A DNA stretch of 63,622 nt, counting the filler, from Craspedostauros australis (Eukaryota): the NCBI GenBank assembly GCA_030167865.1. It is 10 parts of 10 records of this genome, joined end to end, with 100 filler letters (N's around TTAATTAATTAA, not from the genome) between each part and the next. Parts side by side here need not be neighbours in the genome. Positions count along the whole stretch, not along the records: positions 12,400 to 20,800 come from JALAGF010006254.1; 9 more parts are not named here. The stretch is one strand, 5' to 3'. The translations under genes and the position numbers were made by a program. Numbering within the stretch: the stretch's first letter is position 1; each line of letters begins with the position of its first letter. Of this stretch, positions 10,663 through 36,918 are shown in pieces. The notes below the pieces were generated by a model, which was given only the letters and a program-made list of their open reading frames with translations, ran no database searches and was not told where the DNA came from.

Positions 10663-10697
<35 letters not shown>

Positions 10698-12299
10698 TGA
10701 TGTGACGAAGCGATGTGATTACGAGCGTGAGCATTTGTGTGAGTACGAGTAAATCGTGGTTAGTTTGAAGATCATTGACACAGCCACAGCCACAGCCCAA
10801 ACCACAGCGACGACGACAACAAGAGGCAAAGAGGACAGGCAATTCATTGCACTCATCCGCCCTCCGTCACATTGCCACCTTCAGGTAATCGTTGCCATTT
10901 CAGTTCACGGAGAGGACTGTGGGGCACTTACCCGTGGGTGTTCCAGCAGCATCTTGGCATGCTTCAGAATTCCCGCTTTCAGCACCTCTTGTGTCTGCAT
11001 GTCGTTGCCTGTGACGAAGTTACCCAAGCATCGGACAGTTGGTGTGAGGATTGCCGACGATGGATTCTCCAACAGTCCCACGAGTGTTTGCGTGATGTCG
11101 CTGTCGCTGTCCATCACCTTCTGGATGCTTTCGTCTTCGCCGCCGCTGATGTACGACAGGCCCCAGACGGCGTCCACCTTCACTTCCTCGGTGCATTCCG
11201 GGCGACTAAGAAGGAACGACAATGGCTTGATGACTTCTTGAATGATCTCCAGGCTTGGTGCGGGCTTTCCACGGCAGAGATTGGAGATGGCCCAAGTCAC
11301 GTTGGCCAAGAGCGACAAATTCTGTGGCTGCTGGATGTTGAGGATCATCGGCGCGAGGACTTGCTGCTGCAAGAGGAAGTCTCTGTAGGCTGGGTTGTCG
11401 CCAGCAATGTTGCCAAGCGCCCATCCGCACTGTTCGCGGATGTTGGGGTTGTCATTGCGCATGTGCTTGATGAGGGATGCGACAACGCCGCTCTCCACGA
11501 CGACGTTGGTAAGGTCAGTGGAACTGCAAGGTGGAGATCATCGTGATCGACATCGATATCGTCGTCGCCGTTCCATTTTATATGTGGCGGAGATTGTTGC
11601 AGCGGTTGCGAGTATCATCGTAGGCATGGTGGGAGAAGAGAAGATGACGTGAGATCGATTGCAAAGTGTCATAAGAGTCAGGACAAACGGAGAGAGTCAT
11701 CACTATCCACTCTCCATCGTGAACGCGTGGTCGTTTCGTCGTTCATTGAACATCCATCGCGTGCATCCGAGCATGCGAAATGAGAATGGAGGTGTACGTC
11801 CATTCTGCTTCGAGCCATCATGCTCGCACATTGCGCCGTCGTCAATAATATCCCTACTTACGCGATGTTTGTCAACGCCCACGCGGTTTCGAACACGAGA
11901 TCAGCCGGTGCTTCGTCGTCGCTCATGTACTGCACGAGGAGCTGCATGGCTCCAGACTCCACCACCTGATGCACTGGCGGGTTGTGCTCCACCGATAGCA
12001 TTCGACGGATATTTTTGACGCACTGGATTCTGTTTTGTTCCGTGCAGCCTGGGTTGCGGAGAGATGTCATGATCTGCGGCAAGTCAGCGACAGTTGGTGT
12101 CGTCGCAACTGCGCCGGTCGACTCCATGGTTGCGGGTTGCGATGCGGACGCGGCTGGGGTGCGTGTGCGGCGCTTGCTCATCTCGTCTTCCTTCTTCTGC
12201 TTGCGCAGCATGGTTCTTGTTTCCTCTCGACGGCGGCGACTTTCCGCCAGGTTAGCTCCTGCCGGCTTGAAAGCCTTGCGTCGGTCTGCTCCATCGTCG
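9253..12299 (-). CDS. IMPA: Importin subunit alpha (karyopherin alpha), 5'-truncated at the contig edge, with a divergent duplicate of the 3' exons
   Basis: IBB domain (RRRREE..LRKQKKEDEMSKRR) and ARM repeats (ETAWALTNIA, EQCGWALGNIAGD, NVTWAISNLCRGKP, ETCWLLSNIAAG). GTAAGT..CAG introns at 11861-11524 and 10931-10647. A second exon2-end/intron/exon3 copy spans 10299-9253. Confidence 0.92.
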
Positions 12300-12343
12300 N
12301 NNNNNNNNNNNNNNNNNNNNNNNNNNNNNNNNNNNNNNNNNNN

Positions 12344-12399: not shown

Positions 12400-14350
12400 A
12401 GGTGGATCACTCCATCGGCGTCGGAGTACTCAATCACTGACAGTATAGCCTGATGCTTGGCTACCAGACCTTCTCTGAATTCGGCCTTCTTTCGTGACAT
12501 CTGTTCGTACTTTTTGTCTGGTAGGAACCTGANGTTGGTTGCTCCTGGTCGCTCTTCCCTNGTGTTGAACAGATTGGCCACCTCGGTGACTGCGCTGTAT
12601 GCNTGNGATCGTTCGACTTCGAGTTTGACTGCCCTCCANGGTTGCACTGTCCAGTGCCTCTTGCCNTCTCTGTACTTCTCTCTGGTTTCCGTGCTGACCT
12701 GAACAATGTTTTTGATCTTGCCTCCCACTCGGATTTGGCTGTTGTTGCGTCGGAGGCTTCTGTTGATGATGTCAACTGTGCCATCGACGTCGGTGAACCC
12801 TCCGGAGTACAGCAGGAATCCGATTTCTTTGACTTCTTCTGCATCCTGGAGCTGCGCCTCGTACAACCCTTCGTGTTCATTGTAGTAGTAGGCGTTGAGT
12901 TCTGAGTTCCTGTCGGCCGTGATGTCGAATGGGTTTTCCCTGGTGGTAATGCGTACTTTGGCGTAGGTGATTCCAGTCTCGCCGGACGGTGCTCGGAGTC
13001 CGGGGAAGAATGTTCGAAGTTCGTCCATTCTTTCTGGAATCTGCCCGGAGTGTGCAATGTGCGGTCCCGTGTTGCTGGACTCTCTCCATGGCAGTATCAC
13101 CGCGGACGGATCGATTCTGCGGACTTGTCTGAACCAGCGTCGGATGCGATCTCGGACTGCTGCCGTTGTGTCTTCCTCGGTTCTGTCGACGTTGAGCTTG
13201 ATGGTGAATCGGGTCGTGAATTCGTGTCTTGGCGGCGCNNNNNNNNNNNNNNNNNNNNNNNNNNNNNNNNNNNNNNNNNNNNNNNNNNNNNNNNNNNNNN
13301 NNNNNNNNNNNNNNNNNNNNNNNNNNNNNNNNNNNNNNNNNNNNNNNNNNNNNNNNNNNNNNNNNNNNNNNNNNNNNNNNNNNNNNNNNNNNNNNNNNNA
13401 GTCTGTGGTGCTCTTCGGCGATTTGAATCTGGTTCTCTTCGTTGGCTGTCTGCTGGTATATGAGTCGCTGTCGGTGCTGAGCGATTCTGTGTTCAGATGC
13501 GTTGGCATTGAGGCTGCGGCTGGTCCATGTGATTCTTTTGGGTCAGTTGGGGAATCATCATTGGATTGTAGCGTGAGCCCTCCCATGCGTGTTTCGTTAC
13601 CATCGGCGTCTTCGGCAGGTGCTGTCCCTAGGTCGTAGTTGGATCCGAGGACTCGGTTCGCTGCTTTCCAGACTTTGACTGCGCGTGCGCTTTTCACTGT
13701 GCCGTTGCTGTTGAGATGTGCGCGGAATACTTCGTGTGGGTTGGTAGATGCCACATTGAGCACGAANNNNNNNNNNNNNNNNNNNNNNNNNNNNNNNNNN
13801 NNNNNNNNNNNNNNNNNNAAGGCGGTCACTCTGCCATCTGCAAGGTCCCTGAAAAAGTGCTCCCACTGCTTGATTGTTGGATTCTCTCGGTCCGCTGTTG
13901 CCTCGTCTGCGTTATACCATATCGCTCGCGCCCTCCATGCTGCCTTCGCGGCTCTGTCGATGGATCCGTCGCCGGTGGCTTTCTTGAATGGTACTACTTC
14001 GACGCCTGTCTTGTTGGCTGCTGTCTTGAACGTGTTGGATCGAGGTCTGTATGTGATGGACACATCGTCGGGGTCGTTCTCCTCCATTCCGCCGTCGTAT
14101 GGGATCGCTCTTTTTGCTTGCCGTCGAGCTCGGTGCTGGTTGCTTGCATCTATACTTCCTTTGGCTGGGGGTTTGTCGGGCTCCTTGGTCGGAGGCTCCA
14201 AAGTTGGTACTTCCTCGGGTTCGGTCTCTTCGCGGTGGCTCGTGTTGGGTTGGTTGTTCGAAGTCATTTTGCTTTGCTGTTGTTTGTGTTGTGTTAGGGG
14301 ATTAATTAGTTTTTATTTTTCTTTGGTTTGGTTTGTCGGAATTCCGATTC
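12400..14350 (-). mobile_element. Probable 5' end and ORF1 of a non-LTR retrotransposon (LINE, possibly Ambal-like); ORF starts at 14267
   Basis: Short A-rich leader, then a gapped ORF over 600 aa with disordered N-terminus and RFTIKLNV...WFRQVRRIDPSAVILPW...GFLLYS motifs resembling diatom LINE ORF1. It abuts and appears to truncate the neighbouring gene. RT is not seen because the contig ends. Confidence 0.55.
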
Positions 14351-15781
14351 TATGACAATGACAACGACAACAACAACAACAACAACGACGATCCGCAACA
14401 AGCAGATGCAAGCACAGCTGCAGACATTGCCGGAAGCGTAACACCAAGCGACAACGATGGCAGATGGATCATCCTGGGTGGCATGAAGATGACATGGCTG
14501 CTCGTCGAGCTGTACATGACCTTCTGCTGCTTCCTGATCTCTGATATCTTGGTCCGCGATGACCTCCGAGACTGGAGATACTCTAAACTGCAATATTGGG
14601 TTGTATCCATCGGTCTGTCATCAGTGCTGCTAGTGATATCCAGCATCCTACTCAAGTGGGTGATGATCGGCAAGAAGAGACCGGGCAAAGCAAGGACCGG
14701 TATCTGGAGTGAATTCGCAGACTGGGCATGCGACTATCACTTCGACCGAGCATGCTTGATACTCTATGGTCTGACCACCAATTCGATCATTTGGAACCTG
14801 GTCCACATGGCTCATGGACTGGACATCGATCTGCGATCAAAGATCTTCGGTGACAGCTTCCATCCATCCGAAGTCGACCTCATCACCATCCGACGATCGT
14901 TCGTATCCATCGTCACCTTCCACACCAAGGAAAACGGTAAATATGGGAGAACCACGATCGAGGACAGCAGCATCGGGATGCTGACTACTTGCGCGCCGCG
15001 TGTGACAGTCCGCAATGCTTTGGTCTCACCACAGACACACATCACAGAGAGCATCATCCATCCAAAGCCCGATCCGCGCAACGAAAGAATATCAGATTTG
15101 AAATTGACCCGGATTATTGTGGCGAGCACATTGCTGTACGTTGTCATGTTGCTCGTTGCGGCAATCAGCTTCGTCCCAGCCTTTGAGCTATGGATGAATG
15201 TTGTCAAGCCACAATCATCAGTCGAGGCGGCCCCATTGGTAGTGCTATCGGTCATCATCCAGACCATTGTGTGGACCATGCTCTTGCGTGTGCACTCGCT
15301 GATCACATTCGCGGGAAGCAATGAGCGAACGACGCCATGGTGTTTGCCGCTGTACATGGTGTACCAATCATTCACTTACTCCGTCCACAATTGGTCGCTG
15401 TATCCCATCCTCTCGGGAACACCGATGATCAACAGCGTTCTCCGCTTTCGTGGGGTCAACGTTGAAGGTCGCTTGCTGTACTTCGGCTTCCGCCTCTACG
15501 AGCCGACATACGTCACCTTCGCAGATGGATGCGTCGTCGACGAGTGTTTAATCAGCGGCCACTGTGGTATATTCTCCCAACTGACTTTGGGGAAGTCGTA
15601 CGTCAGCGGAGTGTTGCATCGAAATTGTGCTGTCATGATGGTGGCGAAGACAGCAGCAACAGCGGACAAAGCAAGGTTGGCTGAACACGGACCTCAGCAT
15701 CTCCTCATGAACTCGGAGCAATCGCTGGGTGGAAGGCAATCGCAAGCCTCCCAGGAGATGGTCCATTCAGATACAGCTTGA
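14351..15781 (+). CDS. C-terminal part of a Pls/PosA-like (TIGR02353-type NRPS terminal domain) multi-pass membrane protein with left-handed beta-helix repeats; 5' part missing
   Basis: TM pairs followed by LLKWVMIGKKRPG, PSEVDLITI and TTIEDSSIG; a second TM pair, then ILSGTPMINSVLRFRGVNV and EPTYVTFADGCVVDECLISGH. These match the KW..IG...PG and GTP.....R..G motifs of this domain. Confidence 0.7.
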   Translation, partial: YDNDNDNNNNNNDDPQQADASTAADIAGSVTPSDNDGRWIILGGMKMTWLLVELYMTFCCFLISDILVRDDLRDWRYSKLQYWVVSIGLSSVLLVISSILLKWVMIGKKRPGKARTGIWSEFADWACDYHFDRACLILYGLTTNSIIWNLVHMAHGLDIDLRSKIFGDSFHPSEVDLITIRRSFVSIVTFHTKENGKYGRTTIEDSSIGMLTTCAPRVTVRNALVSPQTHITESIIHPKPDPRNERISDLKLTRIIVASTLLYVVMLLVAAISFVPAFELWMNVVKPQSSVEAAPLVVLSVIIQTIVWTMLLRVHSLITFAGSNERTTPWCLPLYMVYQSFTYSVHNWSLYPILSGTPMINSVLRFRGVNVEGRLLYFGFRLYEPTYVTFADGCVVDECLISGHCGIFSQLTLGKSYVSGVLHRNCAVMMVAKTAATADKARLAEHGPQHLLMNSEQSLGGRQSQASQEMVHSDTA

Positions 15782-16474
15782 GGCCGCACGACGCAATAGC
15801 GACATCATTCACCATGGAGTTAAGAAGTAGAGAGCTTCACGATCGGGAGATTGAGCTGCGATGATTGCAGTCGGATCAGTGGGCGCAGCAATGGAGAGTG
15901 AGAAATTCACTGTAAAATCACTAACTCTCTCCACAGAGCACTCTTCTCTCGCCCACTATTGCCGTAGCTACTTCCAACAGACATGGTTTTGCGAATCCAT
16001 CCTCAGTGGCGCATCAATGCTGAACGCTCGGTGGCGGTTCCTCGTTCTCTCCGCAGCCGATGATGCCGTACTGATAGTACCATCGTTGTGTTGACATTGC
16101 ATTGGAACCTGTGGTCGCGTTTGTTTGCAAGACGAAAAGATGATGCCGATTGCTGCATGCTGACTAGGATCAAGCTTACGTATCACAGTGTGGGTTTTTG
16201 AGGTTGGCGAGACAGCCGGTATCGCCTTGTCGATCACAAATGCAGCTGTTGCTGTTCGTCGTCGTCGCCACTACCGGAAGGGGGTGAATTCGTCTGGTGC
16301 CACTCGCACGGTGCAAGACACGGATTATCGCCCTTGCTGCAGCTCATCTTGGGACAGCGACACTGGACGCTCCAATGCGAGGAACTGTTGCAAATCGAGT
16401 TGCTGGAGGGAGGCGGATTGCGTTCGAAGTTGCGGCATCATGAGCGAGAAGAGCAGATGGAGAACGGGAGACGA

Positions 16475-16562
16475 CCAACCACCAACCACCAACCACCAAC
16501 CACCAACCACCAACCACCAACAACCAACAACCAACAACCAACAACCAAGAGCCAAGAGCCAA
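16475..16562. repeat. 7-bp minisatellite (CAACCAC/CAACAAC/CAAGAGC)n
   Basis: Directly visible tandem array with gradual unit change. Confidence 0.9.
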
Positions 16563-17039
16563 CATGGCACAACAGCTTGTTCGGACACCAAAAAAAGAAA
16601 CAAGAGATCTCTCCTTTCACTCGCTACCGGCATTGAACCAGCAGTATCGTACGAGCAGGGCCGAGACTCCGATACCCCCTTTAAACTCACAATACATCAA
16701 TGGACATAGAATGAACCCCGTAGATTCGCACACATCACCAATTGCCCGTCCCCCAATGCAAACGCTCTCTGCACGCACATAGATACATACAGTACTCATG
16801 CGGGTGTGCTCGTGTTCCACTGAGCACGAGTATAGTGCACACGCATGATAGTCTTTGTCACAAAAGCAACCAGAACAGCATTCCCGCAGTAGCTTTGTTT
16901 GGTGCTGCCGCGTTGCCTGCAGCATATGAATATACATAGAGTACTCGTAGTGCTCTGTGTAGTGCTGTAGCCTTGTGGCATTGTTGTGCATGATACAGAT
17001 AGATCCTGCCCAAGTCCGAACACCTGCCACGATCCCATG

Positions 17040-19040
17040 CCTCATGCGCTATACCTCATGCATACTCGTACACATGTGAGCCATGGGATACCATTTCCTT
17101 GGATCTCCACGTTTTGCTTTTGCAGTCTATCTCCGAGTACAGACGCTTCACATGATTGGCCCAATGCCGCAGACCTGAGGCATGCGTCTTCGTCTTCGTC
17201 CCATGCTCCAGCTGGTCCACCGCGTCCGGTTGCAGTATCTCGGCCTGCTCCTGCTCCACCGCCAGCTTGATGATGTCCTGCTTCATCTACGCCATCAGTT
17301 CGCAATTGTTGCCATCGTAGGGAGCAACCACGGCCAATAGGCCCTCGTTCTGGGACCGCAGTTGCTCAAATTCGGTAGCCAGTGTGTAGGTACCACACAG
17401 ACTGCTGTCCTTCTTGCTGATCTCCTCTTCGAATTCTCTCAATTGCTTCTCCATGCTTGCCATCTGCGATTGGAGCAGGTTCATCTGCTCGCCTCTGTCA
17501 GAGGTGGCGCCGCGTGCGGAGGGTAACTTGCGACGCACGCCGGACTCTCTCGTGCTGGATTTGAACTCAGCGATCGCCTGCTGATGCTTCAGATCGTGAA
17601 TCTCGTTCTCCCACAAATGCGCATGGAGTCAAAGTCCATCTTGAAGGTCGAACAGCGAGGATTCAATTTCGGACAGCTTGTGCTTCATCGCCTCCAGGTC
17701 ATTCCATGATGATGCGCTGATGATTCGCAGAGGAACTCAAGCTCGCGGATCCTTCCTCGTTCCATCATGGCAGGAGCGGCCATTTCATGTCATTGAGGGA
17801 TGGTGCACCACATCGATCGTCTCCGCACCACCTTGCGATCCTTGCATGGCGTTTCTGAGATATGTCTGCAGATTCAGGATGACTGCGCCCTTCTGCTCCA
17901 CCGTAGCCTGCTGATCCGACAAGCTGCATTTCAGACATCCAACGCGATTCTGCAAGTCGCTGGTCAGGCCCATCTGCGTGTTCTGGTTCCGGTTCTGATT
18001 CTGGAGTTGGACCAGGGCCTGGTCGAGCTGTCGCGACAACGAGGCATATCGATCGTCAAGAGCCTGGCTTTCTCCAGCCAACCTCCACATCTGCATCTGC
18101 ATCTCGGCGAGACCATCTGAGTCTCACTTGCAACCTTGCTCTCCTCGAGGTTAGTGAGGTCACGTTGGAGACCTGTGATGATGTCACCCAGCATTGCTTG
18201 CAACTGTCCAACATGATTCATTTGTTCACGCAGCTCGTTGCGCTCTTGGGTACCTGTTTCGAGCTCTGTCACAGACTGCAGATCCGAGTTGGTCTGACAA
18301 AGAGCCTCCACTTCTTCGTCAGAAATCGTACCGCTGGACTGCGACGCAGCCTGAGCATGTCCCAACTCGATGATCGTAGCGTCCCTCTCTTTGGTTGCAT
18401 GCTGCAGCTTGATAATGAAATGTTCACTGGAATTCATCTGCTCTCCTTGAGGTTGGCAAGGCCACATTGAAGAATTTCAACGGTACCATCCAGCATTGTG
18501 ACTGCCCCACATGATTCATTTGCTCACGCAGCTCGTTGCGCTCTTGGGTGCCTGTTCAAGTTCTGCATGCAGACTGCAAACCTAAGTTGATCTGACGAAG
18601 AGCCTTCACTTCTTCGTCAGGCAACCCACGCCAGACTGCGATGCAGCCTGCGAATGTCCCAACTCGATGATTGCAGTGCCTCTCTCTCTCTCTCTTTGGT
18701 TGCATGCTGCAGCTTGATGACATGCTGTTCACCAGCATATCTTAGCTCTCAGCTTGCAGGGCCTCATTGTCTCCATCGGTCTCTCCTTCGGCGTTGAAGA
18801 CTCCTTGAGTTTTGATCTGAAATGCATCAAGGTGTGATCTGGCCTCCTGTATGGCAGAGGCAAGGTCACTTCCATGGCCTGGATTGGATTGCTGGTGCGT
18901 GCGCAACACTGGTTGATGCCTTCAACCTTCTCCGCTTGCTCCTTCGCCGCAATGGTCACTTGTTCCATAGTACAAATCGTGGAAATCTCCTTCTTGGCAT
19001 TGTTGGTCATCACCTCCTTTGCCTTGAGCAGCTCCACAAT
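17040..19040 (-). pseudogene. Decayed coiled-coil protein gene with internal duplication (about 18181-18440 vs 18500-18730)
   Basis: Overlapping short ORFs rich in E/Q/L heptads (NLLQSQMASMEKQLREFEEE, SLSRQLDQALVQLQ, EEVEALCQTNSDLQ) broken by frameshifts and stops. Confidence 0.5.
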
Positions 19041-19119
19041 GCGTGCTTTGTCCTTGGGGGACTGTGCATGGAGCTAAGCGACCGTCAGAGCATGTTGGCT
19101 TGCGACAGTTGCCACATGA

Positions 19120-19760
19120 GAAGCCTCTCAATGTCGACTCGCACATCCCCATCGGTGTCTCCAACCTTCCCACAAGCTGCTGCTCCCCTCCTGTGTTCAT
19201 GGCTGTGAGGCTTTTCACACAGGGACAGTCATGTACCAAGCCTGATCGATCAACCTGGACAGACTGGAGCAATGGTGCTTGTGGTTGGATTGAATTGGCC
19301 TCCAAAGATGATGCTTGGGCATTGTGAGTGGCTGGTCCAAGTTCGGCATCGTTGAGTTCGCTGGTGTTGGACAGTGTTGGACAGTGTTGGACCTGTGCCA
19401 TGGGTTGTTGCCACCATGGCATCATTCTTGCTGAAGTTGAAGCTGATGATGAAGTGGAAGATGAAGCCATCAAGATCTGCTGCTGCAGAAGCCTCTTGAT
19501 GTCAACTTGCACATCCTCATTTGGTGTCTCCAACCCTTCCACAAGCTGCTCCCCTCCTGTGTTCATGGTGGTGAGGCCTTTCACACAGGGACAATCATGT
19601 ACCAATGCTGATTGAGCAACCCAGACAGACTGGAGCAATGGCACTTGTGGTTGGATTGGCCTTCGAAGATGATGCTTGATCGTTGTGAGTGGCTGGTCCA
19701 AGTTTGGCATTGTTGAGTTTGCCAGTGTTGGACAGTGTTGGACAGTGATGGACCTGTGCC
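19120..19760. repeat. Two divergent direct copies of a ~280-bp unit (about 19120-19400 and 19488-19760) in CpG-depleted decayed DNA
   Basis: Shared GGTGTCTCCAACC..CCACAAGCTGC..GACAGACTGGAGCAATGG..GGCTGGTCCAAGTT..GTGTTGGACAGTGTTGGACAGTG blocks. Confidence 0.8.
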
Positions 19761-21095
19761 ATCGTTTGTTGTGACCCCACTCTTATCCCATTGTCAGTGT
19801 TGCTGTTGTTTTGTGCGCCATCCCCTGTGTGGCCCAGTGTGCATCCCATTGGCAGGATTGCTGATGTTTCATGTGGCATCCCCTTGTGTGTCCCCTTAGG
19901 ACATTGTTCCCGTGTCTGTACCGGTTTCACCATTTCTGATATTTCATATTGTGACTCTTGCTTCTTCCCTTCTTGATGATTGCCTCTGCACCTGTACCCA
20001 TTGCCAGCATTGCTGATATTCATGTGCCGTCCCATTGTGCAACCCTGTAAATTGCATGATATCCGAGCTTGCCACCAAGTAGGTGGACACCCTGGTGGAG
20101 CTTGCAGCAATAGTGTCAAGCATGCATCGACGAACAGATCAAAGCTACTTGGGATCGTGCCATCATCGTCGTTGTCGCTCATGTTATCGTCATGTTGACT
20201 GAAGGCATGAGGTGCGGTAGCAAGAGTAAATTTGGGGGCATCTGCTCGCTTTGCTATCTTGCTGCCCTGCTGTCTCCTTTCAGAATGTGGTCGATGACGA
20301 TAATGCTCTTCCACCATCGAGAGTTTCATGGTGCCCATTCTGCTCCAGTTCTTGCCATCAAGACCCAAGGTTGGGCCAAAATCAGTTGCTTGGGTGGCAA
20401 TGAGGTGGCTGAAATGGTCCATACCATTGTTGGATGCGCCCAGCTCTTTCTCTGATGACGAACTGTTGATGGGGCCTGTTGGAAATCCGGGGTACCCCAG
20501 TCTCTAGTTGTAGTCTCTGGTTACCTATTCCTGTTATTGCATTGTTGGAACTGTGAGTACAATATCATCACTTTCAATTCCATTTGCCAAAGCATACATA
20601 ATCCACAGTAGCACACAGTCTTGCCCTTGCTCATGCAGTGCTGTCCTCCTGCTTCATCATGTCATGCAGCATGTACTCCATGTACATCTCATCTTGCAGT
20701 ATTGGTTCATCTCATTATGCATCTCATCATGCATCTCAGATATCCCATCTCCTGCCCTCTACCAATAGTTTCATTAGCGTAGACATCGCCGAGTCGTAGG
20801 NNNNNNNNNNNNNNNNNNNNNNNNNNNNNNNNNNNNNNNNNNNNTTAATTAATTAANNNNNNNNNNNNNNNNNNNNNNNNNNNNNNNNNNNNNNNNNNNN
20901 TCAGCAGAGACAACAGAGACGAGTCATAATAACTTCACATCACACACACACACACACTACTCGTATCGTCTCCCGATCATCACATGTAGACACTCAATCG
21001 AACATCTCTTTGCATCTACCTAAACTTAAGACTCAGGGCTATCCAGGAAAGCAATAACATTATCTTGTTGTTACTACCATCTTGTCGATCTTTAT

Positions 21096-24624: not shown

Positions 24625-27600
24625 CCGGCTCTTTGAGGCACAAGTGTCACAACATGGTCGTTGGTCTCACGAAGTTCCACGTGGAATACGACGACAGTGG
24701 AATCGACGGAAGCGTTCGTGGAGCACTCTACCTATTCTCAGTGTCGGTGCTAGCCACAGAAACCGATCGCTATTCGTGCTCGCGTGATCGTTACCCGCAT
24801 GTCTCTCCGAAGAAGAGCGCATACGATTGTCAAAGCAAAGGAGACCTCGATGAAAGTTAATAGTCTAGTTGGATTTTCATGTAACGTTGTGACACGATCC
24901 GGAAGGGAAGGCCTAGCCGACTGCCAGTTTCAATGAAGCTGGGGTTGCAGTTGGCGAAGGATGACCGTCTGGAAAGATTATAGTAGTTGACAATGAGTAG
25001 ATTAGAGTTGTTGCGCTGATCTTGAGTTGTGCTATTTGTTATATTGAATAGTCTGGATGATGAGTTGATCAGCTTGAGGTGTAGGATGAAGAAACGATAT
25101 TCAGTTGGAGAGTGCGGCTCTGCACTGACCGTTAGAGGTTCAGTGTTGAGGACGGATGATCTCTTCCTTTCTCTCTCTTTCTCCACTATCTGTGGTAGTT
25201 GTTCTATGTTCGAGTACAAAGGCTTGACATCTTGATTGAAGTCATGGTTGAGAACACAGGTTTTCAGGCGATGGGAATTTTTGTTGGATTCCCTGCTCAT
25301 GTTGAAGCAGGGAGGATCTCCTTGCTGTTGTCATGTAGAGTTGTTAGCTGGCATGGCTGACAATGGAATCAGGGCTAGCTGCGATACGTGAGTTCAGAGG
25401 AGCATATAGTTCCCGGAGTGCATAGATCTCGATGACTCAAGTGAGTTTGAGTCAGCAGTGATTCATGAGTGAGAGTGGGAGAACGAGGGAGAATAGGGGC
25501 TTTCCGTATTTGTGGGCGGATGGTTTCGCGCCAACATTGACGCGCCAAAACAATTTCATGGTGTGACATGGAACACACTAAGTGGAAAGTAGTCTGTTCT
25601 TTAGATGAACTTCAACTAAGTCTCTGCTATGAAACCGTGCGAAGAACAGCAGCATGTCAGTGGCACACGCAAAGAAGAAAAGCAGCATGCCAGTCGCACA
25701 CCAGGTGAGGAGAACTGTACAAGTGGAACAAAGAATGTAAAGTATGAATACAAAAATGGAGACGGGAAATTGTGTGACAAGATGCAAATCTTGGTCTCAT
25801 AATTTGCCATCGAGAACAACAACAGCAACAACAATTTGTGTGAAAAAAGGACTCTGAATTTTCGCCAAGTATATTTCGTAACAACCATGAGTACCCCATC
25901 ACCTCCCTCCAATATCAACCCCGCCATTGCTGCCGATGATATCGAAGCTGACATCACCAACACCAACACCACTGAGCATGAGATCATCCACAAGTCCATC
26001 CAAAACAAGTCCTTCATTGACCACCTCAAGTTCGTCGTTGAACTCAGGGCCCACACCGTCTTCTCCACCTGGTACAACGACAAGGGAAAGGCAATCAACA
26101 ACTACACCTTCCAGCAGCTCTGGGATGAAGCCGGCCAATGCGCTCACCTCCTCCGCAACAAATGGGGCATCAACAAAGGCGACCGTGTCGTCCTCTGCTA
26201 CGACTTCGGTCTGCACTTCTTCGCCATCTTCCTGGGATGCCTCCGTGCAGGAGTGACTGCCGTGCTGGTCTATCCTCCCGGACCTCCGCTTGTCAAGTCG
26301 CTCACCAAGATGAACAAGGTGATCGAGGATTGCGCTCCGTCACTCATCCTCACCCAAACATCCATCAATCTCCTTCGAGCCGCCGATCGCGCCAACCCAA
26401 CATCCAAGAGCCGCGCCATGTGGCCAAGCGGGGTGAAGTACCAAGTCACCGATCGCATCATTCGCCATGATGGCNNNNNNNNNNNNNNNNNNNNNNNNNN
26501 NNNNNNNNNNNNNNNNNNNNNNNNNNNNNNNNNNNNNNNNNNNNNNNNNNNNNNNNNNNNNNNNNNNNNNNNNNNNNNNNNNNNNNNNNNNNNNNNNNNN
26601 NNNNNNNNNNGTTCCTTCAGTACACGTCTGGCAGTACCGGCAACCCCAAGGGCGTCATGGTGACCCACGACGCCCTGAGAGCCAACATTGAACTATTTCA
26701 CAGCAGTTTCCTCACATGCTTTGAAAAAGGTGCAAACGAGATGCAAATCCTGGGGCGATTTACCATCTTTTCATGGTTGCCTCAGTACCATGACATGGGC
26801 CTCATTCAAATGGTGATTGTGCCACTGGCATCGAATTCCCGAGTCCACATGATATCCCCTGTCACATTCATCCGCAACCCGTTGCTCTGGGTGGACCTCA
26901 TGTCCCAGCACAAGTGCCATTTCAGCGCCGCCCCTGACTTTGCGTATCGTCTGGTCGTCCGCAAATTCAACGAAGCCAACAAACAAGCCAACAAACAAGC
27001 CAACAGAAAGGCTAATTCCATCCCCAATCTGGACCTCTCAAGTGTCCTTCATCTCCAGAATGCCACAGAGCCAATCCGACTTGACACGAAAAAGGAGTTC
27101 GCCGACGCATTCTGCCCATACGACCCCGTTCAGGGTTCTCATGTAGTCATTTGCGGATTTTTGAGATAAGCACTTAGATCATCCTATTATGTTGTAGAGA
27201 GTATATGTGTGAAGTAACAAGCTCCTGGGCCCCGTAGTTAAAAAGTTTATATTTTTCGCACCAGTCTACGTCTAGAAACGCCATGCATGCGGACGTAGGG
27301 GGGCAAATGCGGTTCGGAATCTCCAGTCGTGTTTCGGCATGCTGTCCAGTCGTGTCTATTATCGACGCTCCCACATTTCGCGTGGGTGAGGTGGTCGGTT
27401 TCGATGAAATATTGAGGATTGCGTGGTAGCGGTAGGCATGATGAGGCTGCTACTTCGTCTGGACCGTGGATCAGTGGTCGAAATCTAGAGTTTTGGGTTG
27501 GTGGGTAATCCAGATCTTGACCCCCAGCTTGACTTTCACATTGTCTTGTTCTCGGTTCTGCCGCTGTTCATGCACTGGGACGTTGAGCATCGTCCTCATC

Positions 27601-27783
27601 CCAATCAGCACACACTGCCTTCCCTCCATATGTCTACTCTATGGTACAGCTTCGTCCTCAATTCAGGTCTATTCCCTGTCTGTGTGTTTGGACCTTCTCT
27701 CTGCTAGTCGTCGCCAATAGCCATTGTTGGCTTCTGGCCGTTGTTCATCTGCTCTCCTCTCAGCTTTGTATTTTGGTATCAAT

Positions 27784-27946
27784 TGTCAAACTGCACAAGT
27801 AACTACTGAAGACGTATTGGCCCATTGTTGCGTGCCCTGGTCGGAGCTCTTGTTGTTGTATTGTGAGTCGTTCGAGGGCGATCTCTGACCAGTATTTTCG
27901 ATTAATACAAATAGTAACAAGGTAAGATGTACAGTGATAGCTGTCA
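27784..27946 (-). repeat. 3' LTR of nested Copia
   Basis: 163 bp, TGTCA...TGTCA, direct repeat of 33373-33534. Confidence 0.92.
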
Positions 27947-30900
27947 TGCCCCTTGATCTTGAGGATGACCCTTGTAGAACAGAGCTGTGATGAAAGTGGT
28001 TAGTGTTGGCCGTGCCAATGCCTTTGTGAGCATATCTGCAAAGTTCTGTGCTGATGAAACGTATACTGGAACCAGTATATCGGCTCCCACAGACTCGCGC
28101 ACTTTGTGGAATAATATTGCCACATGCTTCTTTTGTAGCAGGCTGTCTGCAATCGTCTTGTTTGAGATCACAGCATTGTTGTCACATAATGTGATAGCCA
28201 AAGACTTGACTTGGACTCCCAGCAATCGGAGTGCGTATCTGAGTGAAATAGTCTCCTCGTTCACCGATCTCATCGCCTTGAATTCCGCGCTGTATGTGGA
28301 TGTTGTGACGGATGTTTGTTGTTTGCTGGAGAAGTATACTGACGTCCTACCCAGGAATCGTATGATGCCTGTGTTAGATCTCCTGGTCACCAGATCGTGA
28401 GTGTGGTCTGCGTCCACGAATGCATGCATTGGTAGCTCTGGGTAGATTGGCTTTGGTGATCTGTCATCAATGTCTTCCATGGCCTTGGGATATTCCTCCT
28501 TCATCTGTGTTACCAGTTCTGGGTGTGATGGCGTTGCATTGAAGTTGTCAAATATCATTGGCCTGGAATCGATCTGTGTTCGCAGAGTGGGCTTGTGCTT
28601 GAGGTAGCCCCATACTTTGAGTGCGCGTTCAAGATGTCCTTTCCATAGTGATGCAGTGAAGTGTGCAAGTGAGGAAGTTGCAAATGTGACGTTGAAATGT
28701 CCAAGCTGGACAGCCCAGTTTAGCATGCCAATGAGCTGCTGGATTTTTTGTTGCTTGCCAGGTGTTAGTAGTTTGGAGTCGTCTATTTCCGGATGGTCCT
28801 TGTTCCTCATGGGAACATGTTGGCTGTGAAGTGATCCATGCTGGCGCTCGCCTTTGTCCAGTGCGTTTGAGATGTATTTGCTGCACCGGACGCTCCATTT
28901 GCCTTTTGATTTGTGTCCTTCGGTACGATCTTACAATCATCGACATGTGTGCAGATGTAGTCGTCTCCGGATTCGTCTCAGAGTCTGATCCATACATCTT
29001 GGTTGTGGCGCGATGGCTTGCATCCCATGGAAGATAGTGTGTTGGCAAAGTGAGCGTGGAATCATTGGGCACTGGATCAGAGTCCATACAATGATTTCTT
29101 GAGTACAATTGTCTGGCCCTCTCTGTGATTGAATTCCTTTCCTGCTCTCGCGTATATCTTCTTGTTGGTGTAGGTGTTGACGAATGTGTTGCCAATTTCG
29201 CTGCAGAGTTGCTGGAATTTGTTCGCATCTGCGATTACATGGAGGATGCGCATGCTGGTGGAGTTGACTGTTGATGAGGACATGCGTATGTTGTCTGCGA
29301 GCTTGATGAGGCATCCTCCAGCTATGAGCCTTGCGTTCCACCGCAGGTCTCGTTTGACCACGAAGATGAGCCTGAGCTTCATGCTCTGGTATTCAGTTGA
29401 TGGTCGATGTGTGGATGGACAAAAATCAAAGCAGGCAAGGTTGATGAGTGCATCAATCTCCTTCTTGGCTTCTGCCTTCCACATGTCGTTGTTGTTGGCT
29501 TGGTCAAGTTGTAGTGCATGCTTCATGTATTGTAGCACTTCGCCCCCTGTACTGGAATACTGTGGCGAAGAAGTCCTGTTTTGGCTTCTTTTTCCCTGGT
29601 TGAATTTACTGTAGTACAATGACATTGTCATTGCCGTCGATCGTGAATTGGTGTGTGCGTTTGCTACGCTGGATGCGCCGCTTGATTGCCCGGATTGCAT
29701 GATTGGTCCATTGTAGCATCAGTTGCGATTGCCAATTGTGTCGTTCGTTCCGAGTTGGTGTGTTTGCAATGATGTACCGCGCCACCAGCTCCGGATGGTC
29801 CGCTCGAATGATGTCATATCAGAACCATGTTCTTGTCTCCATACCCTATTTGGCATCGAGGTGTAGGTGTCCATTGCGGAAGCTGTGTCCTGCGATGCTG
29901 GTGATTTCAGGTTCGTTCTTGTCGACCTTATCAATTTGATTTTGGGACATCTCGTTGTGCTCTTGTTCTGCAAGAGTGCTTTGATGCCCCTGAGTCCGGT
30001 GCTCCAAAGGATCTAGCATGGGTACCGCCACCAAATCATTGAGCTACCCAGAGACACTGTCAGGTATTTGGCTGTCACCATTGTCATCACTGTCCAAGGT
30101 CACATCTGCAGCGTCCTTTACACTCGTGTCTTCGTCATCAGGCACAACAATTGACTGTCCAAACTATTGGTCCTCCAGTGAAGCTGTGTTTGCGTTGACC
30201 TTGATTTTCCTGACCCTCGTCAGACCAGGTTCCGGGATGCGAGTCGCCACTCTTGACCACACGGCAATCGCATCGATGGCCTCTCGGACCTGTCGAGCGA
30301 GCTCAGCCGGCATAGTCTTTGTTCGTGCCCTGCCACCTGAAGCACTGTTTGTGGTTGTGTCAATGAGGTTGAGCCTTGCGATTCGTTGTATGTCTCCATT
30401 GCTGATGTGCGGAGTGTCTGTGTATTCCAGAATACGCGGCTTGGCAATGTTGCGCATGAGGACTGTGCGCCACTTGATATCCTTGTCTTGTGGCAACCAG
30501 ATATGGTAAGTGAATGGATCCCTGAGTCCACGCGATGCCCAAGATATAGCCTGGTTTGAATGGATGCTCAGGGAACTTTGTCATTGGCCCGAAGAACAAC
30601 ACAGGCTGGAAGAAAGTGGATTGGAACATGGAAATGTTGGGCATGTTGCCATGGACGAGTTCAATTGGTGTCCTCCACTGGATGCTGCCCTTGTCCGTAT
30701 AGTTCCACATGTCGATGGCATGCTGCAATCCAAAACACCAGAATTCAAGTGGCGCGGACGCCGCCCATATCAACTGATAAGCATGCCACTTGATGCCGTC
30801 GATCGCACGTTCCGCTCTGTTCTGATTCTGGTTCATAGGCTTAGTGAAGGAGTGCTTGATCATGTGCTTGGATGTGATTGCCTTCCAGGCCTTTCCTTAT

Positions 30901-33372
30901 TGGACCTGCGAGTTGTTGGACACAAGGGTATCCGGTGCACCAACATTGGAGATGAAGTCCATGAGCGTCCCTGGCGCCATTGCCTCTCTTTGGAGCGGCT
31001 TCGCCCAGATGAATTTTGGTTTGCTGTGGACAAAGAGTTGGAAGCACTTGTAATGCCAAATTGATTGCACTGTGGAAAAGAAGGGGTCTGTATTGACTCA
31101 GCCTTAGATTTGTTGCGGCTGGAGCACTCCAGCTCGTTGTGTTCGGTACTGCCATGGGATGACTCATGACTCTGCCTCAATTGGTCTGTCCGCCAGCTGG
31201 GTGGATGCCATCATTGCCTTCTCGACAACCTGGTGTGGGAAGTGTTTGATCACATCGTTGAAATGGATTCCCTGTTTATTCCGCCGAAGGCGCTGGTGTC
31301 TGTCGCATGTCATGATATGTTTATTAAGTGTTAGCTCATGAGCTGTGGATTTCCGAATGGGGATGCGCAGGGTGTTGCCACCATGGTTGACCAGTGGGAT
31401 GCTGGTGTTGCCTGATGCAATGCGCTGTTGCCCCTGGTGTTGGATGAGGCGATCGTATACATTCAGTCCAGGCACGTGCATGTGATGTGTATTAAACAAT
31501 GATTCCATCTGATGTGGGTGCTTATCCAGAGCCACATATTTTGCCTTGATGAGGATCACATGACCTGTTGGAGATTCATATACTGCCATCGCGTTGACCA
31601 TCTGGAATGCCTTGATTGGTGAGTCCATTGTTGCCCCGCAAGCATGGAATGTCTGTTGGTGTTGTCAGGTCACCACCCATCTGGATTCATGTACGATGTC
31701 GCCGTCTGCCCCTGAGTCAAATGATGTAGCCTTGTCTACTGCTTGTTACTCTTGCCCTGCAAAGAAATTGTTCGATGGTCAGGTGGGTTCCGCTTGGCGC
31801 CGACTCTTGTAGTACCTCCAGGCGTGCACACCTGGGTCTTCTCTCTGCAGCTGTGCGCGTCTCCCCTACAGTCGCGGGGCTTGATACGTATGATGATCTC
31901 CGACTGGCAGCGAGTTGTGTCTGTCATTGATTGTCACGAGCTGTCGTCGCATGGTCTGTATTCCTTTCCACTGCACACCAGGGATGCTTTGGCCCAGACT
32001 CTCTTGTGAGATCTTCATGTGGTGGGAAGTTGGAAGTTCTTTGCGTACTCCACTAGTTTGAGTTTCTTGGGCATGTCCTCGTTGATTGGCTTGCCGTGTT
32101 TTATGGAAGTAAAGCGCAGACTTCATGACGAGCACCTGCATGTGGGTCAGAAGCCGGCAGAAGACGCTGTCCATCAGCAGAGACATTGCCAAGGGCCTTT
32201 GGTCCGTCGTTGGCGCCTCGTAGCGACGCTTACGGTTGATTTACCAGTCCTTCTTCTGCTGTTAGCGCCAGTTGCGCTGTGAGGATTGTTCGATCTTGGA
32301 GTTGGCAATGGAGCTGTCGTGTCTCATCAACTCGTTGCGGATCCAGTCAAATGACTGATTGACGTTGTGAAGCCAAGAAATCTCACTCAAGAATTGTTTG
32401 TCATTGATGTTGTAAAAGAGATTTACGGTGGTCTCCTTCTTGTTCATGACCTTTCCATTGTCTTCCATCATGCGGATGGACTTCAAGAAGGCGTTGACAA
32501 ACGTGCTGAACAGCTTTGATCTATCCTAAATAGGCTTTGCCAGGAGCTCTTCCTGCTCAGCCATGATCTCTGCCTTGCTCTCCTTGAATTTGTACATCCG
32601 GACCAGTGCCTGGAAGGTGTCATGACCACTGCCAATGTGCGATGGCACAATGAAATCCGTGTCACCTCATAGGTCTTGCTGTTGGAGATGGTGTAGAATT
32701 GGTTGTTGATCTGTGAATTGTAGTTGGTTGGTTGCTTGGGTTCTATATACTTCGCGTATCTCATTGTTGCCATTGATCTGGCAAGTGTGATCTTCCAATC
32801 GTGTCAGGCTTTGTTCAGTCCAGAGAAGATCAGAGTTTTGGGCATGGATACCTTGTCCTCATGCCAACCTATTGGTGTTGCAGTTGGTCATGCAAGGGTG
32901 GCTCAACATCATGGAGACATCATTGCTATCTTGTTGTTTGCCACTGGGGGCTCCACCACCGCTGCATCTTTGATGGCCATCTTGGTTCTTGTACAAGCCG
33001 TTGCATTTGCAACAGGGGTCTTGATCTTTGGAGGCACATAGTTGTCTGTTCAATGTATTCATCGACGGTGGTCCAGTTGGTGGTGGAGTCAATTGTATTG
33101 GATCTGGCATATGCAAAGATGTGTTGGATGTTTCCAATGTTGATTGCGGTGAGGGTTGGTGCAAAGGTCAAGGAAGCCACAATTGCGCCATCTGGATGCT
33201 GGATGGCTTGGTTGATGCGCCCAAGGGTGGATGTGATGAAGGTCATCTCCTAGTAGTCAAGCTGGACTAGCTCCTTGATGATGGGTGCAACAGTTCTGTT
33301 GTTGATTGCTCTTGCCATGGTGAAGGTTTGTTTGTAAGTGGTAAGCTTGGCGGCAAATCACAACTCTTAACC

Positions 33373-33534
33373 TGTCAAACTGCACAAGTAACCACTGAAG
33401 ACGTATTGGCCCATTGGTGCATGCCCTGGTCGGAGCTCTTGTGTTTCATTGTGAGTCGTCCGAGGACGATCTCCAACCAGTATTTTGGATTTATGTGATT
33501 AGTAAAAAGGTAAGAAGTACAGTGAAAGCTGTCA
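33373..33534 (-). repeat. 5' LTR of nested Copia
   Basis: 162 bp; about 19 differences from the 3' LTR by hand alignment. Confidence 0.92.
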
Positions 33535-33584
33535 TCAATGAACCTGCACGTACTCCAATCACAACACGAGAAACAACAAGGTAA

Positions 33585-33684
33585 TAATAATAATAACTCA
33601 CAATGACAAAACCCATAGTAGGGAATGCCCTGAGGGCATTAGACTCGCCTGCACAGGCCTTACGGCGCAGGCTAGGTCGAGTAT
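33585..33684 (-). mobile_element. 100-bp 5'-truncated non-LTR retroposon (LINE/SINE 3' end) with (TTA)n tail and 10-bp TSD
   Basis: AACAAGGTAA at 33575-33584 and 33685-33694; segment absent from the homologous region near 1365-1385; (TTA) tail on the minus strand. Confidence 0.8.
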
Positions 33685-34865
33685 AACAAGGTAAACAATA
33701 CCGCCGCCATCAGTCTCTTTCCGCACCATGCCAACAGCTCAGCAGATGACCTCGGTATCCCATGTCCAAGCGGAGCAAAGCAGGTTACACTGGACTTTGT
33801 ACTAACAAACTAAGCTTGGTGTAAAATAATATTGTACTATATTTTGCATACCATAGGATAAGTCACTGTGCTCCATTACATGATGTTATGTTGTTTAGCA
33901 TTCGCAAGTGTCGCTGTTGCAGCCGACGCGCAGGGATGCCACCACCAACGCTGTGCTGCTCAACACAACACACACAAGCGAGGAAACGTCCAACCGAGCC
34001 AAATCACCAACAACGTGAGGAATCAACACGACGCCGAACCTGGCGCAACTTCACCATCAATACAGTTGGACACCATTGCAGTCTGACATCGACCGTCAAT
34101 GACGTCATCATTTTCGTCTACGGTGAAGACAAGCCAGCCATGTTGTTGTGTCGTAGAAGCTAGCTAAATTAATCTAACCCTACTAAACAACACGCAAAAT
34201 TATGATCTAAAAATATCACGTTTTACGATGTCAAATCCGCAGGATACTACACGACTTCGCTGAATGGGGTCATACGGCCTGCGCAAGGATTGGTTCCTCG
34301 TGGCGTACGGACTAGCTGAGAACGTCGTTGGCACCTGCTACAATCACGACTTTTATCTCTCAACCATCCGCGAAGGTGAAGATCTCCACCCGTTTGTGGC
34401 TATCGCCGAANGCAGCAATCTGCACAGCTCCATCGATATCATCATCGTGGACCCGGACACCTGCGTCCAACGTCCAGACAACGTCACAGGAGAGATCTGG
34501 GTCGCCGGGGCCTCTGTGACAGCCGGATATTACAACCAACCCAAGCTCACCGCCGAAACCTTCCAAGCTACACTCCAAGGCAATGCATCATCCGATGCTA
34601 GCAGCAAGATGTACTTGCGCACAGGTGACTACGGTTTCTACCAAGACGACTACCTCTACATCTGCGGCCGCAAGAAGGACATCATCATCGTCAACGGTGT
34701 CAACTACTACCCGCAAGATATCGAGCACACAGTCGAGGAGGCATCATCCGCTGTCCGTCCAGGCTGCGTCGCTGCCTTCTCGTCCGACGATTCAGGCAAC
34801 GATGGACAGCTCGAGATCGTATTTGAGATCCGAGCCAATCACGCAGACGATGCCGCAACAGTCTG

Positions 34866-36023
34866 GGACACGCGGCAAAATGTCTGGCACGATCAAAAAA
34901 TCTCTTTCCTTAAACCAAATAAATAGCTTCGGCGTCTTTTGATATTGTGTAGGTCATCACAACGAAATTGATAAACTTATGCTGTCATGTGTCATTGTCG
35001 GGAATGTCGGGAATGTCGGGCGCTTTGTCGGGAATGTCGGGAGTTTTGTCGGGAATGTCGGGTGTGTTGTCGGGAATGTCGGGTGCTTTGTCGGGAATGT
35101 CGGGCGTGTTGTGGCGATTGTCGAGAATGTCGGGAGTCTCGGCACCACACATCTGCGCCTGGATGGGCAGAGTCCACGGGGAACAGACAGACGAAACAAC
35201 CGAAGAACGAAAATGCATGGTGGTAACAAAGGAAACAGACACACACAGGACGAAACCGACACACTCGCGATCATGTTGTGGATGTGTACTTGACTGGCAC
35301 AAGTTGAAGCACGACTGGAGATTTTGAACTGCAGATGCCCCTTTGCGTCCGCATGCCAAACGTTTCTAGTCATAGGCGACAACGAAACAATAACTTTGTA
35401 TTTACAAGTCCCAGGAGCTGAAACATTTACGAATCTACTCTACACACCATAATAGGATGACATAAGTGCTTATATTTATAATATTACAATCACTACATGA
35501 GTACCCTGCATTGCATACATGGACTGTGATGTGATGCGAGGCGACATGGTGTGTTGTTGTTGTGGTGTCAAGCGAAAAAGCTGGCCGTTGTTTGTCCAAA
35601 CCGCGAATCCGCACGGCAACAACAAACAACGCGCTCATCCGATTTGGGTGGCATTTTGTGTGTGTTCGGGTTGAAACTTCATGGATCGCAACAGCACTCA
35701 CGCTCCGCCAACATCATCCAAACAGATTGTCAACTTTGGTCGAGTATGTCGACTGTTGTGTGAGGAATGTCGGGAATGTCGGGAATGTCGGGCGCTTTGT
35801 CGGGAATGTCGGGTGTCTTGTCGGGAATGTCGGGTGCTTTGTCGGGAATGTCGGGAGCTTTGTCGGGAATGTCGGGAGTTTATCTGTTACGACTCAAGGT
35901 TCTCTCAAGGGAGTAATTGACGCAATACGCGGCAATGATGTATGACCAATTCATAATATCATGATATTATGTTACTTAACACGTTCCCGGTTGTAGCAAA
36001 TCCCGACTTTCTGCCGAGTGTCC
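34866..36023. mobile_element. Non-autonomous PIF/Harbinger-like element (MITE), 3-bp TSD CTG
   Basis: CTG|GGACACGCGGCAAAATGTC ... GACTTTCTGCCGAGTGTCC|CTG; excision restores the FAAL frame; no transposase ORF. Superfamily inferred from the CWG TSD. Confidence 0.8.
34995..35135. repeat. Subterminal tandem array of TGTCGGGAA-based 9/21-bp units; second array at about 35765-35880
   Basis: Directly visible; both arrays are in the same orientation. Confidence 0.9.
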
Positions 36024-36918
36024 CTGTCAGGAGATCAGAAAGGCTGTGATGGAGCACATCGGATTGGCACCGGCAACAGTCGCAGCCGTCAATGAACGCA
36101 CCATCTCCAAAACAACAAGCGGCAAGATCCAAAGACGCCGCAACCGACAACGTCTGCACGATGGAGACCAGAAAGCAATATTCAGCTTCCGCACAAACCC
36201 AAATTCAACCTCCCAAGTTGCACTGGATGGCGATGCCAAGTCATCACCAACCGAAACCATGTCGGCGAGGAACGTAGACCAAGACAAGGACCTCCAAAGT
36301 AAGACGTTCAATGAGATCATCACGAACGCAACGGGATCGCAAGTCAAGGGAGATGACACGTGGGAAGACGTTGGGCTGTCATCCATGGCGGAACTAGAGC
36401 TCCGGCAATCACTGTCAAAACGGTACAGCACCACCCTCCCTCTGAATTGCTTCCAGATGTTCTCAACCCTCATGGATCTCGAAACATTCCTCGAGACATC
36501 GCACGGAGAACCACTCCCAACGCGTCTCCCAATGCTCAAGAGACTTACTACCATGCGCAACGAGAAACAATTCCCCCAAACAACATCCTGTGGGAATATT
36601 CCAATGACACGCATACTTTGTGACCTTGAGAGTGATCAAATTGTGTCGTGAATGAATTTTGTTCCTCGATCAAATCAATCACGACTCCAGGAACCATGCG
36701 CGCCATTTTTTCAACAATGTTCCTTGTGTGTTACGTTCAATCAAAACACGGCGAAGATTCTGGATCGATCGTGGATCTGGATAACTATCGACCAACCGAG
36801 CACGACCTCGGAGTGCCANNNNNNNNNNNNNNNNNNNNNNNNNNNNNNNNNNNNNNNNNNNNTTAATTAATTAANNNNNNNNNNNNNNNNNNNNNNNNNN
36901 NNNNNNNNNNNNNNNNNN

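Follow-up and report, generated by a model that had tools for sequence, protein, structure and literature searches.

A transposon-cut remnant in Craspedostauros australis leads to a diatom gene family coupling a fatty acyl-AMP ligase and carrier protein to a Pls/PosA-like membrane domain

The remnant at the locus and its broken neighbour

We analysed a stretch of 63,622 nucleotides from the diatom Craspedostauros australis (assembly GCA_030167865.1; parts of ten contigs joined end to end, hereafter the window), in which an open reading frame (ORF) on JALAGF010006254.1, the record that fills 12400-20800, had been described, from its sequence alone, as the probable C-terminus of a synthetase composed of a fatty acyl-AMP ligase (FAAL), an acyl carrier protein (ACP) and a membrane terminal domain of the kind found in the bacterial Pls/PosA enzymes. 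The ORF is what a transposon has left of the 3' end of one copy of a diatom gene that has been duplicated many times, and intact paralogs elsewhere in the genome carry all three parts in a single open frame.

The reading frame extends from stop to stop over 14306-15781 on the plus strand (491 codons), with position 14351 in frame. Its N-terminus is missing, as had been noticed; homology to the paralogs begins at 14353, where a repeat ends. From that base onward the nucleotide identity to full-length-type copies is 91-95%, and the remnant differs from the nearest full paralog, L028, by a nonsynonymous divergence (dN) of 0.061 and a synonymous divergence (dS) of 0.208 (88% amino acid identity). 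Hydropathy reveals four hydrophobic segments, and mapping of the structural model of L028 onto the ORF arranges them as two membrane hairpins with a beta-helix after each, in agreement with the transmembrane segments and beta-helix repeats first read from the sequence. Two of the three hairpin/beta-helix units of the gene are left. The features are as follows.

14353..15781, plus strand: 3' remnant of a FAAL-ACP-terminal-domain gene, comprising linker, hairpins 2 and 3, beta-helix repeats C2 and C3 and the stop codon (paralog identity)
14453..14668, plus strand: membrane hairpin 2, two helices (hydropathy; L028 model mapped to the window)
14816..15064, plus strand: beta-helix repeat C2, without a conserved His at the loop position (model mapping, alignment)
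15095..15307, plus strand: membrane hairpin 3 (hydropathy; L028 model mapped to the window)
15446..15709, plus strand: beta-helix repeat C3, whose conserved His is codon 15560-15562 (genomic copies, 92-sequence alignment, LacA alignment)
12400..14354, minus strand: ORF1 (5' part) of the non-long-terminal-repeat (non-LTR) retrotransposon that truncates the gene, reaching the contig end (multi-copy, common end point)

The sequence to the left of 14353 is a repeat with 30 other genomic matches, the majority of which end near the same base. Given that a longer copy of this repeat carries both ORF1 and an endonuclease-reverse transcriptase ORF2, the truncating element is a non-LTR retrotransposon lying head-on against the remnant. 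Purifying selection is still visible between the remnant and its nearest full paralog, which suggests that the break is recent.

The preliminary description had proposed a scan with TIGR02353 and hexapeptide models. Applied to the window ORF itself, such scans gave nothing significant: NCBIfam returned no family at E<=1, and Pfam two weak matches (E 0.06 and 0.1). A profile of 20 bacterial Pls-type terminal domains scored the ORF at 21.8 bits, compared with 2.1 bits for the best of 200 shuffled sequences and 1.3 for the reversed sequence.

A FAAL-ACP gene had also been reported on the next contig (C6255), its recognisable sequence ending just after the ACP. This proved correct: the gene ends at 36588, at the edge of a third repeat element that cuts it from 36589, and two insertions divide what remains into three pieces. 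It is a pseudogene, with the following parts.

25890..27121, plus strand: FAAL, first part, with a gap of N at 26475-26610 (domain matches, paralog alignment)
27122..34271, no strand assigned: insertion in the FAAL, bounded by terminal inverted repeats and flanked by a 4-bp target duplication, with a nested, decayed LTR retroelement inside (junction sequence, self-comparison)
34272..34865, plus strand: FAAL, second part (FadD32-like match, E 1e-36; paralog alignment)
34866..36023, no strand assigned: second insertion, bounded by short terminal inverted repeats and flanked by a 3-bp target duplication (junction sequence)
36024..36588, plus strand: end of the FAAL, ACP (GLSSM serine motif, ~36334-36492) and start of the terminal-domain linker (PF00550, paralog alignment)

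The ACP matches PF00550 at E 0.00095, just under the family cut-off. The direct repeats of the nested retroelement (27784-27947 and 33373-33535) are 88% alike; the element is copia-type by reading of its translations and has no Pfam match. Upstream of the broken FAAL gene lies a DDE transposase (PF13843; 22640-23974, minus strand).

It is doubtful that the ORF and the C6255 pieces are the halves of one transposon-split gene. Both lie on the same strand of consecutively numbered contigs, do not overlap, and are closest to the same paralog clade (L002, L035 and L038; 92-95% nucleotide identity for the ACP piece and 91-95% for the terminal piece), but this shared clade says little because it spans 13 contigs. 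Against a single gene, 735 nt relative to L028, encoding the first hairpin and repeat C1, are absent between the end of the C6255 gene and the start of the ORF, none of 45 genomic matches is a contig piece carrying just this segment with those ends, and each break is due to a different repeat. In the window the terminal part precedes the FAAL, matching in order and strand the tail-to-head tandem pairs, 4.7-4.9 kb apart, on C5783 and C6186. The C6255 gene is thus more likely a tandem neighbour of the window ORF than its missing half. The suggestion that the two pieces together reveal a FAAL-ACP-terminal-domain family was right in that the fusion exists elsewhere in this genome; the evidence does not make these two pieces one gene. 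Because both are broken by transposons, the window locus is probably dead; the biology would lie in the intact paralogs, to which the window copy is a pointer.

Intact paralogs, their loading domain and their terminal domain

Searches of the same genome returned 53 matches to the window ORF (56 candidates scored) and 54 to a FAAL segment (58 scored), two of the latter divergent. Half of the 20 paralog loci fetched contain full-length intronless frames of 1527-1597 codons, five of them free of N; the remaining loci are incomplete because of contig ends, gaps or an interruption. Homologues of the terminal domain that were never fused to a FAAL-ACP would have spoken against the family proposed in the preliminary description. 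Here 10 of 20 loci are full-length fusions, and single open frames of the same composition occur in other eukaryotes as well. The intact paralogs are laid out as a FAAL, an ACP and three units of membrane hairpin plus beta-helix, with no condensation or thioesterase domain: a single module with a carrier and a membrane terminal domain. None of the 20 paralog frames in this genome contains a tailoring domain, and no signal peptide was apparent on inspection of ten paralog N-termini by eye. One near full-length paralog (L036, on C6421) has an interruption of ~735 nt in its last third, either an intron or an insertion. A separate FAAL-ACP gene on C3954 (L145:4131-6050, minus strand) is 35% identical to the family, and no terminal domain was seen beside it within the 8.5 kb fetched.

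For the loading domain, every top match in NCBIfam and in the PDB is a FAAL. The FAAL pocket motif (WLPQYHD.GL), motifs A5 and A7 and the ACP serine are present in all 20 paralog frames; the strict FSH pattern is found in 18, both misses differing by one residue before the helix, and YPP in 16, the four misses being cut by contig ends. Judged by sequence alone, the paralogs show both the blocked coenzyme A (CoA) pocket, with its Trp and FAAL-specific helix, and the proline-lined alternative pocket given as hallmarks of FAALs in PMC8460268. The Asp motif that binds the alpha-amino group (FD.S) is found in 0 of 20 paralogs, compared with 37 of 41 Pls-type proteins. The earlier proposal that these enzymes activate a fatty rather than an amino acid is consistent with this FAAL-type loading domain lacking the amino-acid-binding Asp motif.

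The terminal domain of a whole paralog scores 61 bits against TIGR02353 (E 7.3e-17), below the curated cut-off of 423.1 bits, and is about 18% identical to that of Pls/PosA. A profile built from diatom terminal domains matches all three repeats of bacterial Pls-type proteins. These comparisons indicate that the paralog domain is remotely homologous to the Pls/PosA domain, as its first description as Pls/PosA-like had implied. A model of the terminal domain, based on 86 sequences, has a predicted local distance difference test score (pLDDT) of 90.5 and a predicted template modelling score (pTM) of 0.90, and consists of three hairpins alternating with three beta-helices. The closest folds are those of trimeric beta-helix acyltransferases (3ect, Z 10.7, root-mean-square deviation 3.5 over 144 residues; 3srt, Z 10.3). 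The matches listed fall mainly over repeat C1; C2 and C3 are assigned from sequence profiles and secondary-structure prediction. Neither sequence nor fold searches turned up a solved Pls terminal domain.

An alignment of 92 sequences that includes bacterial Pls-type proteins leaves five invariant columns, one Trp, three Gly and His658; the last, in repeat C3, is the only invariant polar residue. The C3 His is present in all 43 genomic copies, that of the window included, in 59 of 61 FAAL-type rows and in 20 of 20 Pls-type rows, and it is kept in an acyl-CoA-ligase-type sister group too. Neither C1 nor C2 has a conserved His at the loop position in the alignment. With three of three C3 profiles, the C3 His aligns with His115 of Escherichia coli LacA, which we take to be the catalytic residue of that enzyme. 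Trimeric beta-helix acyltransferases generally have their catalytic His in a protruding loop (PMC3046976). The QTHLFEDR motif of Pls falls in C3, as aligned here; its His is kept in the FAAL type and its acidic FEDR is not, a loss that fits a different acceptor. Repeat C3 is also shortened in the diatom group.

Expansion, mosaic paralogs and occurrence in other organisms

Repeat C3 occurs on 43 contigs, which form 30 groups at 99.5% nucleotide identity, 18 at 95% and 7 at 80%, and several contigs carry identical copies of it. The paralogs are under purifying selection, with a median dN/dS of 0.14-0.35 per segment (pairs with dS 0.05-1.5, the pairs being non-independent). The silicon transporter family of the same assembly gives 92 matches, about a dozen of them near full length and several with internal stops, reflecting either an unusually large expansion or heavy splitting of haplotypes.

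Segment identities revealed that the nearest neighbour of a paralog shifts along the gene. The terminal domains of L021 and L027 are 100% identical and their FAAL pockets 72%, L021 and L026 share 95% of the pocket and 54-61% of the terminal domain, and L036 combines an ACP from one clade with a terminal domain from another. Trees of pocket and terminal segments for 19 paralogs reject one another (approximately unbiased test, p 0.0002 and 4e-6), and the transitions are abrupt. The FAAL pocket and terminal domain of these paralogs have different histories. Where the swapped segments are 88-97% alike and not 100%, exchange followed by divergence fits better than misassembly.

Two phosphopantetheinyl transferases were found in the genome. 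One lies 9 kb from a family member on C1378 (15169-15429 and 24252-25592); we rejected this pair as a gene cluster, as housekeeping-type genes lie between. On C3424, a terminal domain at 15-440 is followed on the same strand by a silicon transporter from 1562, the paralog ending ~1.1 kb before the transporter, and two contigs with a third repeat identical to that of this clade (C5794 and C3638) end at about that same distance. A single sequencing run of uncertain type contained 6% of the words searched, its contigs covering no more than short patches, and supports no conclusion on expression.

A profile search of 1.84 billion representative sequences recovered 238 proteins at E<=1e-30. Among the 57 listed matches of at least 1100 aa, 37 are FAAL-type by motif, 6 are of nonribosomal peptide synthetase (NRPS) type and 14 are unclassified, many of these being truncated. 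Organism names were looked up for 30 matches, the majority of the matches being unnamed. They include 15 proteins of the diatom Seminavis robusta with this terminal domain, and members from Chrysophaeum taylorii (a pelagophyte), Salpingoeca kvevrii (a choanoflagellate) and Amorphochlora amoebiformis (a chlorarachniophyte); the Salpingoeca and Amorphochlora entries have transcript-type headers. When the first repeats of 207 proteins are placed in an unrooted tree, all 61 FAAL-type sequences lie together, with 8 unclassified ones, on one side of a single split (support 0.99). No named bacterial or plant FAAL-type member was seen in word-based searches, which cannot show absence; these yielded 85 further proteins, of which 2 are FAAL-type, both close to the query. 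Plant FAAL-like proteins presumably carry beta-helix annotations; no named plant protein is among the matches.

An FAD oxidoreductase, an alpha/beta hydrolase or a ketosynthase is present as an extra domain in some members. The FAD oxidoreductase lies between the FAAL and the terminal domain in six proteins (P0019, P0024, P0025, P0114, P0121 and P0228), and an Atlas search with this domain returned generic flavoprotein clusters only. P0214 (2920 aa) joins FAAL, ACP, ketosynthase, a second ACP and the terminal domain in one chain, where release from a minimal polyketide synthase (PKS) may be the task of the membrane domain. The sister family (P0063-P0107) couples an acyl-CoA-ligase-like domain and an ACP to the same type of terminal domain, and is found in diatoms (Mayamaea, Stephanodiscus, Seminavis), mucoralean fungi (Umbelopsis, Absidia) and the rotifer Adineta. 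Four bacterial Pls-type proteins (P0030, P0267, P0268 and P0293) have a fused phosphopantetheinyl transferase domain (PF01648, precomputed).

A proposed acyltransferase and its alternatives

The family shares with Pls/PosA the single module of adenylation domain, carrier and ~700-aa terminal domain without condensation or thioesterase domains, the three hairpins and three beta-helix repeats, and the C3 His. It differs in that a FAAL replaces the amino-acid adenylation domain, the Asp motif and FEDR are absent, and the FAAL-type terminal domains form a clade of their own. By the tests run, the family appears to work like a Pls/PosA synthetase, yet is not a member: the TIGR02353 score is 61 against a cut-off of 423, and both the amino-acid adenylation domain and FEDR are lacking. 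The FAAL motifs and fused ACP recall FAAL-ACP starter modules (FadD32, the Legionella and E. coli FAALs, and PKS loading FAALs such as 7r7e), but the paralogs here have no ketosynthase or condensation domain, and a membrane beta-helix domain follows directly after the ACP. The trimeric left-handed beta-helix acyltransferases (LacA, Maa, QdtC, WlbB, NeuO, and LpxA and LpxD among those with acyl-ACP donors) share the repeat fold (Z 8.5-10.7) and the His at the LacA His115 loop position, whereas the family has three repeats per chain, six membrane helices, one His instead of three and a donor tethered in cis. Two uncharacterised groups are also similar. The plant HemY/amine-oxidase-FAAL-catalase proteins are likewise eukaryotic FAALs outside PKS and NRPS systems, and they too have fused FAD domains, as do some diatom members of our family (PMC8460268). 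The FadD7-type acyl-CoA-ligase-ACP-TIGR02353 proteins of the sister group have the same type of terminal domain and the C3 His; unlike the family, their loading domain is not a FAAL, and they are ~1650-1700 aa long and fall outside the FAAL clade.

We propose that the intact copies probably encode self-loading, acyl-ACP-dependent membrane acyltransferases that carry out a single transfer to a small or membrane acceptor. The FAAL, fused as observed to the ACP, would adenylate a fatty acid and load it onto the phosphopantetheine of the ACP, bypassing CoA, as FAAL homology suggests. The predicted fold would have three hairpins holding three left-handed beta-helices, all on the ACP-facing side of the membrane, where they could stand in for the three subunits of a trimeric LpxA/LacA-type acyltransferase; the precedent is LpxA, which has this fold and takes acyl-ACP donors (PMC6408518). 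The C3 His would then activate an amine or hydroxyl of the acceptor, which would attack the acyl-thioester, and since the presumed catalytic His is kept in repeat C3 only, a single active site is expected. The product would be a fatty amide or ester, formed at the cytosolic face of the membrane with one acyl transfer per acceptor. Tandem duplication and segment exchange between paralogs could pair varied acyl pockets with varied terminal domains and so give rise to a set of related lipids.

Several observations weigh against this proposal. The closest relatives of known chemistry, Pls and PosA, are iterative polymerases rather than single-step transferases. The FAAL-specific insertion is ~14 residues shorter than in 7r7e, the closest solved FAAL, and for this reason we only infer that CoA is rejected and that the substrate is fatty; the blocked CoA pocket is reported to outweigh this insertion in importance (PMC8460268). 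The C3 His is one column off in the alignment with Maa, and the diatom-only C3 profile scores LacA at only 0.5 bits at that position. Mosaics that are 100% identical in a segment, such as L021/L027, may be assembly artefacts from collapsed repeats, and haplotypes and fragmentation inflate the copy numbers to an unquantified degree, as the silicon transporter matches illustrate.

Pls-like iteration is the alternative that survives best, though we consider it unlikely. The FAAL would load a hydroxy (or omega-amino) fatty acid, which the terminal domain would add, cycle after cycle, to a lengthening chain held non-covalently; estolides, a lipid polyester or a polyamide would result. Iterative polymerisation is documented for Pls (PMC9205021, PMC4668381, PMC7179176), which works with a freely diffusible acceptor (PMC9205021). 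The entire engine of three hairpins and three helices is retained in the model, and the FAD oxidoreductase of several relatives could modify a tethered acyl chain. No tailoring domain accompanies the 20 paralog frames of this genome, however, the FEDR of Pls is lost and C3 is shortened in the diatom group, and the reshuffling of varied pockets among terminal domains is at least equally compatible with a set of small products. Similarly, we give only a small chance to the more ambitious idea of a protist lipid counterpart of epsilon-poly-lysine synthetase, a one-gene, CoA-free membrane polymerase of hydroxy or amino fatty acids, whose dozens of copies in this diatom would exchange acyl pockets and polymerising domains by recombination to produce combinatorial surface or defence lipids.

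Less probable still is a FAAL-derived loading domain that activates another carboxylic acid (short-chain, aryl or amino-substituted), in which case the product would not be a long-chain lipid. The shortened insertion would be in keeping with this, as would the finding that FAAL phylogeny does not predict chain length (PMC12820801), and the terminal domain does accept different loading domains, given that the sister group pairs it with a FadD7/acyl-CoA-ligase-like domain; but the paralogs retain intact FAAL pocket motifs, and their top structural homologues are FAALs without exception. Very unlikely is an expansion arising merely from segmental duplication or a haplotype-splitting assembly, with most copies functionless, for which the 92 silicon transporter matches, the identical copies on several contigs and the transposon-broken copies of the window speak, but against which stand seven clusters persisting at 80% nucleotide identity, dN/dS far under 1 in every segment, the full-length frames in half of the fetched loci and the 15 named members in Seminavis robusta.

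The acyltransferase proposed here would combine known parts in what is apparently an undescribed variant, the fusion of a FAAL-ACP with a Pls/PosA-type engine. The beta-helix model of this engine is already published: a pseudo-three-fold beta-helix domain, like that of sugar-nucleotide acyltransferases, was predicted for PosA in PMC10522769, the main text of which contains neither 'fatty' nor 'diatom'. No description of the architecture appeared in the literature searched, a search whose coverage leaves out most subscription papers and in which the term 'TIGR02353' occurs in 0 papers, and term look-ups in the available parts of PMC7335047, PMC4726125, PMC13194791, PMC13235166 and PMC8070225 gave no mention of it. 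PMC12820801 reports 16 FAALs in Seminavis robusta and the highest mean FAAL count among eukaryotes in diatoms, and assigns no role to them in the part available; the main text searched does not name the architecture, and five supplement files (one incomplete) have no Seminavis or TIGR02353 row, though its supplementary domain tables may list it. With 15 named Seminavis robusta proteins against these 16 FAALs, the architecture would account for most of the diatom FAAL excess. It would also imply that several protist lineages make an acylated product by a route independent of CoA. As a one-gene system it is open to expression and assay, and the His common to it and bacterial Pls is a candidate catalytic residue for the poly-lysine synthetase engine.

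Two further loci in the window concern other genes. An importin-alpha-like Armadillo-repeat gene (9250-12300, minus strand) has its last exon region twice (~9250-10035 and ~10280-10720), which reflects a local duplication or an assembly overlap. An AAA_16 ATPase frame (36863-39046, minus strand) contains an internal duplicated segment between gaps of N that is probably an assembly artefact.
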